Shown: positions 1-4,593 of the stretch, in pieces
Layout of the letters: each line of letters starts with the position of its first letter
Numbering within the stretch: the stretch's first letter is position 1
Sequence record: MT968995.1
Length of the DNA stretch: 64,000 nucleotides
DNA from: Escherichia phage vB_EcoM_WL-3
Direction: 5' to 3' (one strand)
Position numbers and translations under genes: made by a program
Notes under the pieces: model-generated
Seen by the model: the letters and a program-made list of their open reading frames with translations, nothing else
What the model was told of the DNA's origin: nothing
The model's database searches: none

Positions 1-564
1 ATCGGCAGAGGTAGTTTCAACCCCAGAAATATTACCGTTAAAGGTTTCAACTCGAGCAAGGGTATCTTCAATATCAACCTTAGTCAGTGCTGCAATTTCA
101 ACTACATCATCAGCAGTACTAATTCCAAGGGCATTTGCTGCACGAGTTTCACGGATATATTCCAATTTAACCGCAAGTTCTTGACGAGCATCATCTAACT
201 CAACTACTTTCTTGGCGATTTCAATTCGCATTTCAGCATAACCGTCAGCCTTAGTAGTCAACTGCTCAGCTGTTCGACGATATAGTAAACCGAGTTTAGC
301 ATGCATTGTTACATCTTGGCCTTCGAAAAGAAGTTTACGAATTTCACGCTCTTTTGATTCGGCCTGTCGATTCTTTTCGATAACAAGTTCACGAATACGT
401 TTTTCTTCGTTAATAGATTTAACAGAAGCAGTTTTTAGATCTTTAATTTTATCAAGTAGTTTTGCTGCTGCAGCAGTATACTGTTCTTCGACAGATAGAT
501 TTTTAGCCATAGCAGAACCAAGTTTAGTGCGAATAAACTCAACAATTTTCTTCAGTGTGTTCAT
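1..564 (-). CDS. coiled-coil protein, C-terminus cut by window edge; possible PspA/IM30-like
   Basis: ATG at 564 (rc of cat 562-564) preceded by AAGGAAA; open to position 1; translation [28 protein letters not shown]... is heptad-rich and charged. Confidence 0.4.
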
Positions 565-665
565 AGTATTTCCTTAGGTTAATTGAGATTTAAAATCCGT
601 AGGAGTATAATACTCTATCGTCAAATTATAGGCTCATAATATCTCAATCATGAGCCTGCGTAAAC

Positions 666-929: not shown

Positions 930-1124
930 TTCATTCTCCAAGTTGTTTTCTGTATCAGTAGTTGATAGTTGTATAGTACCATGGAAGAACAGAGATGTAA
1001 ACAGTTTTGTGAAAAAATTTTTAGGGAATTCTAGGGCAGGGATGGGCAATTAAAGGATAGGATAATATATTATAAAGGGTATAAACTAAATGATGCCTAG
1101 AGAGGTCCAGAAAGGCCTAGATAC

Positions 1125-1158: not shown

Positions 1159-1722
1159 TTATTTACCTAGTTTAGTTATTATAGCTTCGGCAGCAGCTTT
1201 TAGCTTAGATGCGGTGTTAATACGATTTTTAATTTCAGTATACGCATCGCCAAGAACGTCGAGGCTATCAGAATAAACACTTACACTATTGCGTTCGCTA
1301 TTTGAAATAGAACCTTTAGTTTTGCGGTCAAAATCGGTGTACACGTCTTGAAGATCGCGGGCTGCCTTCTTTGCATCATCCAATGCATCAAGAGCTTTAT
1401 TCAAAGCATTAACGTATTTTTTAGTGTCGAACATATTCTTAGAAATTTTAACAGGTGCGCGTTCAGGAGTAGCTAACACAGATTTAGGAACCTGAGCGCC
1501 AGATGCCAATTTCTTAGAAATTTTGAAAAATGCTTTATTGAATTTATTTTCTTGACTCATTGTAAAAGAACTATTATCGATGTTGTACATTTCAATAGCT
1601 TTAGCTTTCCACTTAAGAAAATCGCCGCGGTCTTTTGGATCCAATTGGAAGAATACTTTAGTAAGTTCTGCTTCAGATGGTAATTTTGCTGCTTCGGTTA
1701 AAAATTCGGCATAGGTTTTCAT
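1159..1722 (-). CDS. internal head protein with capsid targeting signal (IPIII-like)
   Basis: N-terminus MKTYAEFLTE matches the T4 internal-protein targeting signal MKTY.EF..E cleaved by gp21 protease; 187 aa. Confidence 0.55.
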   Translation of the reverse strand: MKTYAEFLTEAAKLPSEAELTKVFFQLDPKDRGDFLKWKAKAIEMYNIDNSSFTMSQENKFNKAFFKISKKLASGAQVPKSVLATPERAPVKISKNMFDTKKYVNALNKALDALDDAKKAARDLQDVYTDFDRKTKGSISNSERNSVSVYSDSLDVLGDAYTEIKNRINTASKLKAAAEAIITKLGK

Positions 1723-2520: not shown

Positions 2521-2596
2521 TGGTCGAGGCAGTAGGGATCGAACCTACGACCTAGGACTTAGAAGGTCCTTGCTCTTCCTTCTGAGCTATGCCTCG
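2521..2596 (-). tRNA. tRNA-Arg (anticodon UCU)
   Basis: Hand-folded cloverleaf: acceptor CGAGGCA/TGCCTCG, anticodon loop CTTCTAA, T-loop TTCGATC, encoded CCA. Confidence 0.8.
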
Positions 2597-2600
2597 GATT

Positions 2601-2675
2601 TGGCGGACATGATAGGATTCGAACCTATAACCAATCGCTTAACAGGCGATCGCTCTGCCATTGAGCTACACATCC
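2601..2675 (-). tRNA. tRNA-Asn (anticodon GUU)
   Basis: Acceptor GGATGTG/CATGTCC, anticodon stem ATCGC/GCGAT, loop CTGTTAA, T-loop TTCGAAT, CCA. Confidence 0.75.
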
Positions 2676-2679
2676 AAAT

Positions 2680-2766
2680 TGGTGGGGAGTGATGGAGTCG
2701 AACCACCCGAGTCGCAATGACAATGGATTTACAGTCCACACCGCTACCTCTACGGGATAACTCCCC
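2680..2766 (-). tRNA. tRNA-Tyr (anticodon GUA), type II with long variable arm
   Basis: Acceptor GGGGAGT/ACTCCCC, anticodon loop CTGTAAA, 15-nt variable arm, T-loop TTCGACT, CCA; D-arm irregular. Confidence 0.7.
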
Positions 2767-2778
2767 TAATTCTTAATT

Positions 2779-2853
2779 TGGTGGCCCTGGGTGGAATTGA
2801 ACCACCATCTGGCGATTATGAGTCGCTTGCTTGAACCTTCCAGCTACAGGGCC
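2779..2853 (-). tRNA. tRNA with CAU anticodon (Met, or Ile if C34 is modified)
   Basis: Acceptor GGCCCTG/CAGGGCC, anticodon loop CTCATAA, T-loop TTCAATT, CCA. Confidence 0.7.
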
Positions 2854-2861
2854 AAATTTTC

Positions 2862-3347
2862 TTATTTTATGTAATATTTATTTAAAAACTTTCTAGCTTG
2901 AGTATGGCTAACATTTATAGCATTTGCATAATTTTTAATAAAACCTCGTTCATCCATATTAAAACTTTCTAATATTTTTAATCGTCTAGCTATCTCATCT
3001 TGACTTAAAGTACTTGCATTATTTTTAGAAATTTTTTCTAAGGACTGTACTGAGTGTTTTCGACCATTAAAATTAAAATTTTTAGATTTTGGAGGAAATC
3101 TATCATTTAGTCTCGCATCTTTTGTATTTTGATTATTAGTTGCGCAATATATGTTATTTAATGAGTATGGTCCTTTATCACCAAAACGGCACATACAGTA
3201 TTCATGACCCTTTCTTCCACGCTTATCATAATTTCCCGTTGATTTCCACCAATGCAACCACTCATCAAAAGTTAAATTCCATTCAATGTTTCTACGTATA
3301 GCAGAATTCCGCTGAGAAATATATTTTGCATAATCTTCTTTCATCAC
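2862..3347 (-). CDS. free-standing HNH-like endonuclease candidate inside the tRNA cluster (position of T4 segB)
   Basis: 161-aa ORF; block GHEYCMCRFGDKGPYSLNNIYCATNNQN resembles phage His-Me-finger/HNH motifs; no GIY-YIG motif. Confidence 0.45.
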   Translation of the reverse strand: MMKEDYAKYISQRNSAIRRNIEWNLTFDEWLHWWKSTGNYDKRGRKGHEYCMCRFGDKGPYSLNNIYCATNNQNTKDARLNDRFPPKSKNFNFNGRKHSVQSLEKISKNNASTLSQDEIARRLKILESFNMDERGFIKNYANAINVSHTQARKFLNKYYIK

Positions 3348-3391
3348 AAATTTCTCTACTTATTACATACACTAAGCTAAATCAGCAAAAC

Positions 3392-3481
3392 TGGCGGAGG
3401 CGATAGGATTTGAACCTATGAGTCGCCGGAGCGACTGCCGGTTTTCAAGACCGGTGCATTAAACCACTCTGCCACGCCTCC
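3392..3481 (-). tRNA. tRNA-Ser (anticodon UGA), type II
   Basis: Acceptor GGAGGCG/CGCCTCC, anticodon stem CCGGT/ACCGG, loop CTTGAAA, long variable arm, T-loop TTCAAAT, CCA. Confidence 0.8.
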
Positions 3482-3483
3482 AG

Positions 3484-3557
3484 TCTCCATACAAGGATTT
3501 GAACCTTGGACCTCCTGATCCCAAATCAGGCGCTCTACCAAACTGAGCTACACGGAG
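3484..3557 (-). tRNA. tRNA-Pro (anticodon UGG), CCA not encoded
   Basis: Acceptor CTCCGTG/TATGGAG (with GU pairs), anticodon loop TTTGGGA, T-loop TTCAAAT; 2 nt from tRNA-Ser. Confidence 0.75.
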
Positions 3558-3567
3558 TAAATTAAAT

Positions 3568-3641
<74 letters not shown>

Positions 3642-3646
3642 AAATT

Positions 3647-3733
3647 TGGTGCGAGAAGTGGGACTCGAACCCACAAGGAAATCATTCCGCAGCATTTTAA
3701 GTGCTGTGCCTTTACCAATTTGGCCATTCTCGC
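3647..3733 (-). tRNA. tRNA-Leu (anticodon UAA), type II
   Basis: Acceptor GCGAGAA/TTCTCGC, anticodon stem CAGCA/TGCTG, loop CTTAAAA, long variable arm, T-loop TTCGAGT, CCA. Confidence 0.8.
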
Positions 3734-3734
3734 G

Positions 3735-3807
3735 CTGGGAATAAAGGACTCGAACCTTTGCATCCTGGAATCAAAATCCAGTGCCTTACCAACTTGGCTA
3801 ATTCCCA
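3735..3807 (-). tRNA. tRNA-Gln (anticodon UUG), CCA not encoded
   Basis: Acceptor TGGGAAT/ATTCCCA, anticodon stem CTGGA/TCCAG, loop TTTTGAT, T-loop TTCGAGT. Confidence 0.75.
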
Positions 3808-3876
3808 ATTATTAACAAAGGCTCTTAAGCAAGAACCCTTGATGATAGAGGGTATTAATCAGTGCGATATGAGTTA

Positions 3877-3901
3877 ATAATAACAAATAATTCTTAAAGC
3901 A
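3877..3901 (-). promoter_or_regulatory. T4-type middle promoter (MotA box) upstream of tRNA cluster
   Basis: Minus strand aTGCTTTAag, 12 nt, TATTAT; near-identical to element at 63484-63508. Confidence 0.5.
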
Positions 3902-3904
3902 TAT

Positions 3905-4192
3905 TTACCATTTATAATAATACATATTTACGATGCATTCAAGACCCAAAGGATTCTTGAAAATATCATATTCAAGAGGACCTTTTTCTGTTTCAATAAA
4001 GAAATCAAAATTTACTGTATTAAATTTACGTTCTTCCTTCACTAATTTAACTTGAGAAGATGAACGGTCAATGTAAACCTTTTCAACTTCAAAACATGTT
4101 AAAATGCCATAATCATCAATCAAAGCTTTAGCCGCGTCTTGATCATATTTATATCCATTTTCAATGGATGATACTTTCGCATAAAGAATCAT
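3905..4192 (-). CDS. hypothetical protein
   Basis: 95-aa ORF, ATG start, 2 nt from upstream ORF stop. Confidence 0.45.
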   Translation of the reverse strand: MILYAKVSSIENGYKYDQDAAKALIDDYGILTCFEVEKVYIDRSSSQVKLVKEERKFNTVNFDFFIETEKGPLEYDIFKNPLGLECIVNMYYYKW

Positions 4193-4194
4193 TA

Positions 4195-4593
4195 TCAGCC
4201 TTCATCAACAATAGTGTGAGTATTAGCATTTACGATTTGCCACCAATCAAAGCGATTAGAATCCATCGGTTTGTTTTCATTTTCTTTGATAATGTCACGG
4301 AGTTCATCTTCAGAGAATGCTTTAGCGATTAAATCGGTATACCCACCACGTGGATAATAATTATCACCTGCAAACAAAAGGAAATTTACCTTCCCGGAAG
4401 GAACATACGCTTCCTTAGGATACTTGTTTCCTGCGTGGTCAACCACTTCAATATAACGGTAAGGAATATCGGTTCTTTCAACCCATTGCCATGCCGCCGC
4501 AGGGGAATCGAAAGCATCTACACCTAAACGATTATCTTCATCTTTAGACGGATTATTTTCGTAATCCGCATATACATAATATTCAACGTTCAT
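4195..4593 (-). CDS. hypothetical protein
   Basis: 132-aa ORF, ATG start overlapping upstream ORF stop. Confidence 0.5.
   Translation of the reverse strand: MNVEYYVYADYENNPSKDEDNRLGVDAFDSPAAAWQWVERTDIPYRYIEVVDHAGNKYPKEAYVPSGKVNFLLFAGDNYYPRGGYTDLIAKAFSEDELRDIIKENENKPMDSNRFDWWQIVNANTHTIVDEG

Follow-up and report, generated by a model that had tools for sequence, protein, structure and literature searches.

A probable PspA/IM30-type protein encoded by gene e.6 of T4-like phages

The gene at the left edge of a 64,000-nucleotide stretch of the genome of Escherichia phage vB_EcoM_WL-3 (sequence record MT968995.1), the whole of which is called the window below, can with near certainty be identified from its sequence as the ortholog of T4 gene e.6. 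Its product is very probably homologous to PspA/IM30. We favour, as somewhat likely when taken as a whole, the reading that e.6 is a PspA/IM30-family protein that protects the host inner membrane; the membrane-protective function by itself, which is argued by analogy, is put forward tentatively. T4 e.6 has long been catalogued, and its PspA likeness has already been published once and figures in the Pfam and NCBI labels of homologs in the Ackermannviridae. Since both the gene and the similarity are on record, the present finding confirms an under-exploited lead and is no discovery. The publication concerned is a 2021 genome announcement, which gives an HHpred match of 99.9% between gp163 of Klebsiella phage Metamorpho and E. 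coli PspA (4WHE_A) (PMC7862958). Our literature search found no other paper linking e.6 or T4-like phages with PspA, and phage-encoded members are not discussed in a paper on the evolution of the phage-shock proteins (PSP) or in the Cell 2021 paper on Vipp1 and PspA.

The e.6 gene and its family

The open reading frame (ORF) starts with an ATG at positions 564–562 on the minus strand and stays open down to base 1, giving 188 codons (Table 1). A first-pass annotation, made by a model from the bare sequence, had described a truncated ORF at 1–564 with a good ribosome-binding site, and both points are borne out; the 30-residue peptide that it quoted corresponds to residues 53–82 of the e.6 translation. 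The complete ORF, the recovery of which had been proposed as a check, was obtained from Yersinia phage fPS-90, whose 99.7%-identical genome carries a 197-codon e.6 gene (L001:3971-4564). Since the full-length orthologs (g133c of fPS-90 and T4 e.6) comprise 197 amino acids, the window lacks no more than the nine C-terminal residues, VQEYINSLK, and the stop codon.

The window protein is identical to T4 e.6 (NP_049742, UniProt P39224) at 184 of 188 positions (98%, E = 1e-134), the substitutions, from window to T4, being V61I, I62V, R66K and F80S. Its residues 1–188 also match positions 1–190 of the 200 in the profile phrog_1203 (E = 4.8e-81), a family of ‘unknown function’, and the T4 reference record lists e.6 as T4p129 (69312–69905, minus strand), a ‘conserved hypothetical protein’. 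In T4 the gene has e.7/e.8 on one side and e.5 on the other, with the tRNA cluster nearby; the synteny of Tequatrovirus is kept here, e.6 lying downstream of e.8 and the tRNA cluster and upstream of the genes running from e.5 through nudE to e, according to the annotations of fPS-90 and T4. The first-pass annotation had been aware of no PspA-like protein in T4-like phages and had held that a match to a known T4 gene would speak against such an assignment. The gene is in fact e.6 of T4 itself, so that it is not new to these phages and the match is there; however, it leaves the PspA reading standing, because e.6 is itself uncharacterised.

Conservation extends well beyond this pair. The window belongs to a Tequatrovirus (T4-like) genome, its own first 1200 bases matching 549 phage records in megablast, and tblastn revealed an e.6 homolog of the same length encoded in 1098 phage records, with identities from 99% down to 31%, in phages of Escherichia, Klebsiella, Aeromonas, Enterobacter, Yersinia, Citrobacter and Cronobacter. 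One homolog from another genus (Jiaodavirus), gp163 of Metamorpho (QPB08900), has 197 amino acids, is 59% identical to e.6 and occupies the same position with respect to an e.5-like gene, membrane-protein genes, nudE and the endolysin gene; it is still a ‘hypothetical protein’ in GenBank. The e.6 ORF is a real conserved gene, far beyond a chance ORF, and on these alignments it represents a narrow family of proteins of ~200 residues shared by T4-like (Straboviridae) and Vi01-like (Ackermannviridae) phages. The product is predicted to be a 22 kDa protein, soluble, acidic and nearly all-helical.

Relationship to PspA and Vipp1

The homology was assessed with three alignments, namely A1, of 29 close homologs (the T4 clade), A2, an extended family alignment of 57 members, and A4, of the Ackermannviridae clade typified by protein P0066. 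The latter, like P0065 and P0001 (the full-length window-type e.6), is a representative protein from a large library. A Pfam scan of the A2 members gave matches to PF04012 (PspA_IM30) for five of them, the best at E = 8.9e-10. This is the value of P0066 (39.0 bits), followed by P0065 (35.1 bits, E = 1.4e-8), the gathering score being 33.9; residues 6–146 of these two proteins align with positions 2–143 of the Pfam profile, and the next-best family lies at E ≥ 0.03. P0065 and P0066 also match the T4-clade profile over their full length, with E values of about 1e-21 and 3e-20. The contig that encodes P0066 comes from a phage, with a T4-type UvsX and a DnaB-type helicase, and the close relatives of the protein are found in Vi01-like Ackermannviridae (Salmonella phage Vi01, Klebsiella phage T751 and others), where precomputed assignments to PF04012 exist for most members and NCBI has given one of them the name ‘PspA/IM30 family protein’. 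The Vi01-like proteins are about 202 amino acids long, are 22–25% identical to e.6 and have a C-terminal YLxSL ending as e.6 does. The hhalign comparison relates A1 to A4 with a probability of 99.7% (E = 3.6e-27, 198 columns). That the Vi01-like clade passes PF04012, whereas the T4 clade does not, would be due to the former having kept enough of the ancestral sequence.

Searches of all 177,635 distinct PDB sequences point in the same direction. The top seven matches of the A2 profile are all Vipp1 or PspA (E = 1e-4 to 3.6e-3), in a colinear alignment of residues 1–146 with 1–147, and so are the top eight of the A4 profile, of which the best reaches E = 4.8e-5, the first unrelated protein appearing at E = 0.3. 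Alternatively, e.6 might be a charged helical hairpin of unrelated origin whose matches are driven by composition. The first-pass annotation had guessed the PspA/IM30-like family by eye and had warned that coiled-coil bias makes such an assignment unreliable, and the caution was justified in so far as the window protein alone has no Pfam PspA match at E ≤ 10. An artefact of this kind is nevertheless very unlikely. The E values of the two PF04012 matches, 9e-10 and 1.4e-8, are better by three to four orders of magnitude than that of the best unrelated coiled-coil match among the family members (about 5e-5), and the curated Pfam threshold is passed. The alignments begin at residue 1 and bring the hairpin turn into register, which is not how compositional matches are expected to behave. 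Vipp1 or PspA is top-ranked in three independent searches, and the published HHpred result was obtained independently. When the A1 profile was run against 1.84 billion representative proteins, just 46 clusters were retrieved at E ≤ 1e-3, almost all full-length ones having 195–209 residues; coiled-coil composition is therefore not generating a flood of spurious matches.

Structure prediction is consistent with the profile searches. AlphaFold2 models from the A1 and A2 inputs (predicted local distance difference test, pLDDT, 75 and 79.5; predicted template modelling score, pTM, 0.62 for the second) contain the same helices, at residues 3–22, 25–80, 86–145, 151–160, 166–173 and 186–196, in agreement with the almost wholly helical translation noticed at first pass; the last helix is interrupted by the window edge. 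The long hairpin made by the second and third helices is, in these models, the counterpart of the alpha1/alpha2+3 core of PspA, Vipp1 and ESCRT-III, and the predicted order of elements is that of the same three groups, with an alpha0-like helix, the hairpin and then short C-terminal helices whose correspondence is putative. The N-terminal 18 residues of e.6 have a hydrophobic moment of 0.52, as compared with 0.42–0.49 in alpha0 of E. coli PspA. In the C-terminal part the residues conserved in A1 are T174 and F175 (a T-F motif), Y192 and L196. Foldseek against the PDB placed Vipp1 at ranks 1–10 (best E = 5.4e-4, probability 1.0), followed by archaeal CdvB2, with Synechocystis PspA (7ABK) at rank 48. 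In the viral structure library BFVD, the best matches included members of the e.6 family encoded by Citrobacter phage CfP1, Serratia phage Muldoon and Erwinia phage phiEa2809, as well as the protein of Klebsiella phage UPM 2146 whose label is discussed below.

Two side observations arose here. At rank 9 (E = 0.04) of the BFVD matches, Foldseek returned a 229-amino-acid ‘PspA/IM30 family protein’ of Acinetobacter phage vB_AbaM_ME3 (A0A172Q0S7); as this is an unrelated large phage, PspA-type proteins may have entered phages on more than one occasion. At the predicted tip of the e.6 hairpin (KLLFEGQD), codon 80 (positions 325–327) specifies Phe in the window, whereas Ser occupies this position in T4, fPS-90 and the P0001 cluster; across the family the residue varies (S, A, V, Q, N, T) but is aromatic in none of the aligned homologs shown.

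The comparison with the bacterial proteins, E. coli (4WHE) and Synechocystis (7ABK, rods) PspA and Vipp1/IM30 (6ZVR, 7O3W, 8QBR, 8QFV), shows a common order of elements, with an amphipathic helix followed by a hairpin of ~55 and 60 residues, in proteins that are likewise acidic, soluble and of similar size. There are differences as well: identity is 14–17%, e.6 is shorter by 25–80 residues, and its N-terminal helix is cationic, with a net charge of +3 (family mean +3.5), whereas alpha0 of E. coli PspA is neutral. Unlike bacterial PspA, e.6 is encoded by a lytic phage, is expressed early and has no psp operon partners. With the ESCRT-III proteins of eukaryotes and archaea (Snf7/CHMP, IST1, CdvB2), no match at the sequence level was obtained; nor did a Vps4-type ATPase or a MIM motif come to light, no search being aimed at either.

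Several results weigh against the assignment. Neither the window protein nor full-length P0001 matches PF04012 even at E ≤ 10, let alone at the gathering threshold; the Pfam families that do appear at E ≤ 10 with the window protein are sub-threshold, unrelated and mostly helical, the best being USP8_interact (0.045). Searching the window protein with phmmer against the PDB gave no match, and NCBIfam gave nothing relevant, the TIGR02977 and LiaH models being without a match. With the A1 profile alone, Vipp1 is aligned colinearly in the PDB but at a non-significant E = 2–5, and the match became significant only after distant family members had been added to the T4-clade profile. An alignment of 12 enterobacterial PspA sequences gave weak hhalign probabilities of 35% with A2, 7% with A4 and 0.2% with A1, this alignment being shallow (relatives of at least 86% identity among the matches listed); against E. 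coli PspA alone the probability was 0.6%, and it is from this result that the pairing of ARVETF in e.6 with ARFESF in PspA stems. Moreover, the likeness to PspA and Vipp1 covers only about the first 145 residues of e.6; the C-terminal third is shorter, with no significant alignment beyond about residue 150 to alpha4/alpha5, the helices by which subunits are locked to one another in the PspA-type polymer. Finally, the N-terminal helix is modelled with low confidence (pLDDT about 46–48).

The search against PspA/Vipp1 profiles that the first-pass annotation had proposed was positive by way of the family members and profiles and negative for the window protein alone, while its guess by eye gained support from the distant members, the profile searches, Foldseek and the published HHpred result. 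The similarity is remote but consistent, and e.6 would be a divergent and compact offshoot, in phages, of the PspA/IM30 (Vipp1) family, which itself is part of the ESCRT-III superfamily.

Gene neighbourhood and expression

Ahead of e.6 lies a homolog of e.8, and ahead of both a sigma-70-type promoter-like site (Table 1), which is a candidate T4 early promoter; fPS-90 is annotated with a ‘predicted early promoter’ at the matching position and with a terminator, just beyond the window, into which the end of e.6 extends. With a candidate promoter before e.8 and an annotated terminator after it has passed e.6, the two genes look like a short early transcription unit and are probably co-transcribed. 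Between the e.8 stop and the e.6 start, an 8-bp inverted repeat (AGGCTCAT, 12 nt, ATGAGCCT; 657–630) overlaps a weaker promoter-like site (TTTACG-17-TATTAT, 664–636). The repeat lacks the T-run that follows a classical terminator and so does not qualify as one; it could serve as a structure for RNA processing or regulation.

Table 1. Positions in the window of e.6, its predicted parts and the adjacent features
Feature	Position	Strand	Basis
Coding sequence of the e.6 ortholog, codons 1–188 of 197	1..564	minus	Translation; matches to T4 e.6 and phrog_1203; full length from fPS-90
C-terminal part of e.6, codons 151–188, with predicted short helices 151–160 and 166–173	1..114	minus	AlphaFold2; conservation in A1
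Predicted long helical hairpin, codons 25–145 (25–80, turn 81–85, 86–145)	130..492	minus	AlphaFold2, pLDDT 86–97 (about 90); region aligned with PF04012/Vipp1
Predicted cationic amphipathic N-terminal helix, codons 3–22, putative alpha0 counterpart	499..558	minus	AlphaFold2, hydrophobic moment, charge
Ribosome-binding site of e.6, AAGGA	571..575	minus	6 nt upstream of the ATG; sequence inspection
Intergenic region e.8–e.6	630..664	minus	Sequence and promoter scan
e.8 homolog, 87 amino acids	666..929	minus	phrog_2678, E = 1e-55; T4 e.8 of the same length and near-identical; fPS-90 g134c
Sigma-70-type promoter-like site, TTTACA-17-TACTAT with upstream TG	973..1001	minus	Consensus scan; ahead of e.8 and e.6

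In T4, the RNA of e.6 is classed as early and its protein, which was detected by proteomics, as middle (PMC9697503, supplement); the protein is therefore made. The early RNA bears on a different identity found in the databases. Many GenBank records (e.g. LR597660 and OL310488) carry the label ‘host specificity protein (ACLAME 1259)’, and the homolog of Klebsiella phage UPM 2146 (BFVD A0A5Q2F7S5), a member of the Ackermannviridae, is labelled ‘Tail completion protein’, which would make e.6 a host-specificity factor or a virion or tail component. These labels have been propagated with no cited experiment, in T4 itself the gene is listed as no more than a conserved hypothetical protein, its RNA is early, unlike that of structural genes, and it stands among early genes, outside the tail-fibre and baseplate modules; nor did the Pfam and Foldseek searches find any similarity to receptor-binding or tail proteins. 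The ‘host specificity’ label was rejected for want of a supporting similarity or expression pattern, both labels appear to be propagated misannotations, and a virion or host-specificity role is extremely improbable.

Downstream of e.6, T4 encodes e.5, which is soluble, and then e.4, e.3 and e.2, with two, two and one predicted transmembrane segments, respectively; e.2, e.3 and e.4 (L005 3653-4694; left of the window) encode small proteins with no Pfam matches. Small membrane proteins are encoded shortly downstream in Metamorpho as well, in both cases after e.5, and immediately downstream in one Ackermannviridae contig (L003). The idea that e.6 is always tied to small membrane proteins, as analogues of PspB and PspC, or to the lysozyme gene e was considered; it holds in T4, Metamorpho and the Ackermannviridae contig but was rejected as a general rule, as it fails in Aeromonas phage 65 and RB43. 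Since the arrangement differs in these two phages, a fixed ‘Psp-like module’ is unsupported as a general feature. Likewise, e.2–e.4 have no detected similarity to PspB or PspC.

The e.6 gene of T4 shares length, start and genomic neighbourhood with that of the window but differs in that T4 carries e.7, which is missing in vB_EcoM_WL-3, where the e.8 homolog directly precedes e.6. Further along, between e.8 and the tRNA region, an extra ORF of 187 amino acids (1159–1722, minus strand; phrog_2280) is present, with a weak, sub-threshold match to cytochrome b562 (E = 0.0055) and terminator-like hairpins on either side, at 1150–1132 and 1840–1817. The tRNA cluster (2521–3807, minus strand) comprises nine genes in the order Arg(tct), Asn(gtt), Tyr(gta), Met(cat), an ORF, Ser(tga), Pro(tgg), Gly(tcc), Leu(taa) and Gln(ttg), as compared with Arg, segB, Ile, Thr, Ser, Pro, Gly, Leu and Gln in T4. 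This phage therefore has Asn, Tyr and Met tRNAs where T4 has Ile and Thr. The ORF inside the cluster (161 amino acids; 2862–3347, minus strand; phrog_16521) sits in the slot of the T4 GIY-YIG homing endonuclease gene segB and may represent a mobile or homing element of another kind. In RB43 (NC_007023, L009 about 3820-4420) the annotated e.6 has 97 amino acids, and the N-terminal part (MIKKIFSFLNNKVETVIEQNTSPED...) is encoded in another frame just upstream; the e.6 of that record therefore contains a frameshift, which would reflect either a pseudogene or an error of sequencing.

A possible role at the host inner membrane

Injection of T4 DNA breaches the membrane, where phage membrane proteins and the holin then accumulate, and holin triggering is sensitive to the proton-motive force. 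T4 also shuts off host transcription early, and the sigma-54-dependent psp operon of the host therefore cannot respond. We propose that e.6 would act in the manner of PspA: its cationic amphipathic N-terminal helix would attach it to the host inner membrane on the cytoplasmic side, and polymerization via the hairpin would yield a coat by which proton leakage is limited. Such a coat may preserve the proton-motive force and, with it, the energy supply and the correct timing of lysis in the infected cell. A membrane-stress or lysis-timing factor had been suggested at first pass, and a role of this kind is likewise argued here by analogy.

Besides the gaps in the similarity described above, other points count on the negative side. 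Our literature search found no experiment on the function of e.6. T4 remains viable with deletions in the interval from e to the tRNA genes, which suggests that e.6 is dispensable in the laboratory. The link to membrane-protein genes and lysozyme is absent from the two phages named above, and no homologs of PspB, PspC or PspF were found nearby, e.8, e.5–e.2 and the 187-amino-acid ORF being without a Psp-family Pfam match (E ≤ 0.01).

The same fold could serve other ends. The e.6 hairpin might mimic PspA in binding the host regulator PspF or the PspB/C sensors, and thus tune or block the phage-shock response. The region of similarity (about 1–145) coincides with the crystallized fragment of PspA, residues 1–144 (4WHE), which is the target of the published HHpred match, and it is established that the N-terminal part of E. 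coli PspA carries determinants for binding PspF. However, control of a host sigma-54 promoter would be of little benefit to a phage that shuts off host transcription early, and a family spread over phages of Aeromonas, Klebsiella, Serratia, Erwinia and Salmonella at 18–60% identity does not look as if it had evolved together with a single host regulator; the cationic, amphipathic character conserved at the N-terminus favours membrane binding instead. We regard regulatory mimicry as quite unlikely. Somewhat less improbable, though still unlikely, is that e.6 has retained the PspA/ESCRT-III fold for a use away from membranes, as a cytoplasmic scaffold or as an adaptor for a phage or host protein. 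Against this stands the retention of an amphipathic, cationic alpha0-like helix across the family, and all the PspA, Vipp1 and ESCRT-III members that have been studied act on membranes (PMC8281802 and related papers). A PspA/IM30-family protein that protects the inner membrane is thus the reading that we retain.

It is tempting to speculate further that T4-like and Vi01-like phages carry their own membrane-maintenance protein of the ESCRT-III/PspA type, which would hold the inner membrane and the proton-motive force after host shut-off, thereby setting lysis timing or lysis inhibition, or blunting abortive-infection effectors that depolarize the membrane; in the Tevenvirinae it may act together with e.2–e.4. 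This wider proposal is doubtful in our view, if possible.

PspA owes its name to its induction by phage infection. If the proposal is true, the phage would itself encode a ‘phage shock’ effector, e.6, which would be the first viral member of the superfamily to have a function in bacteria. A PspA-like protein of its own in a lytic phage would mean that the integrity of the host inner membrane must be managed by the phage, with consequences for lysis timing, for lysis inhibition, for the energy supply of late infection and, possibly, for how the phage withstands host defences acting by membrane depolarization. The genetics of T4 are so tractable that the function of e.6 is directly accessible to experiment.

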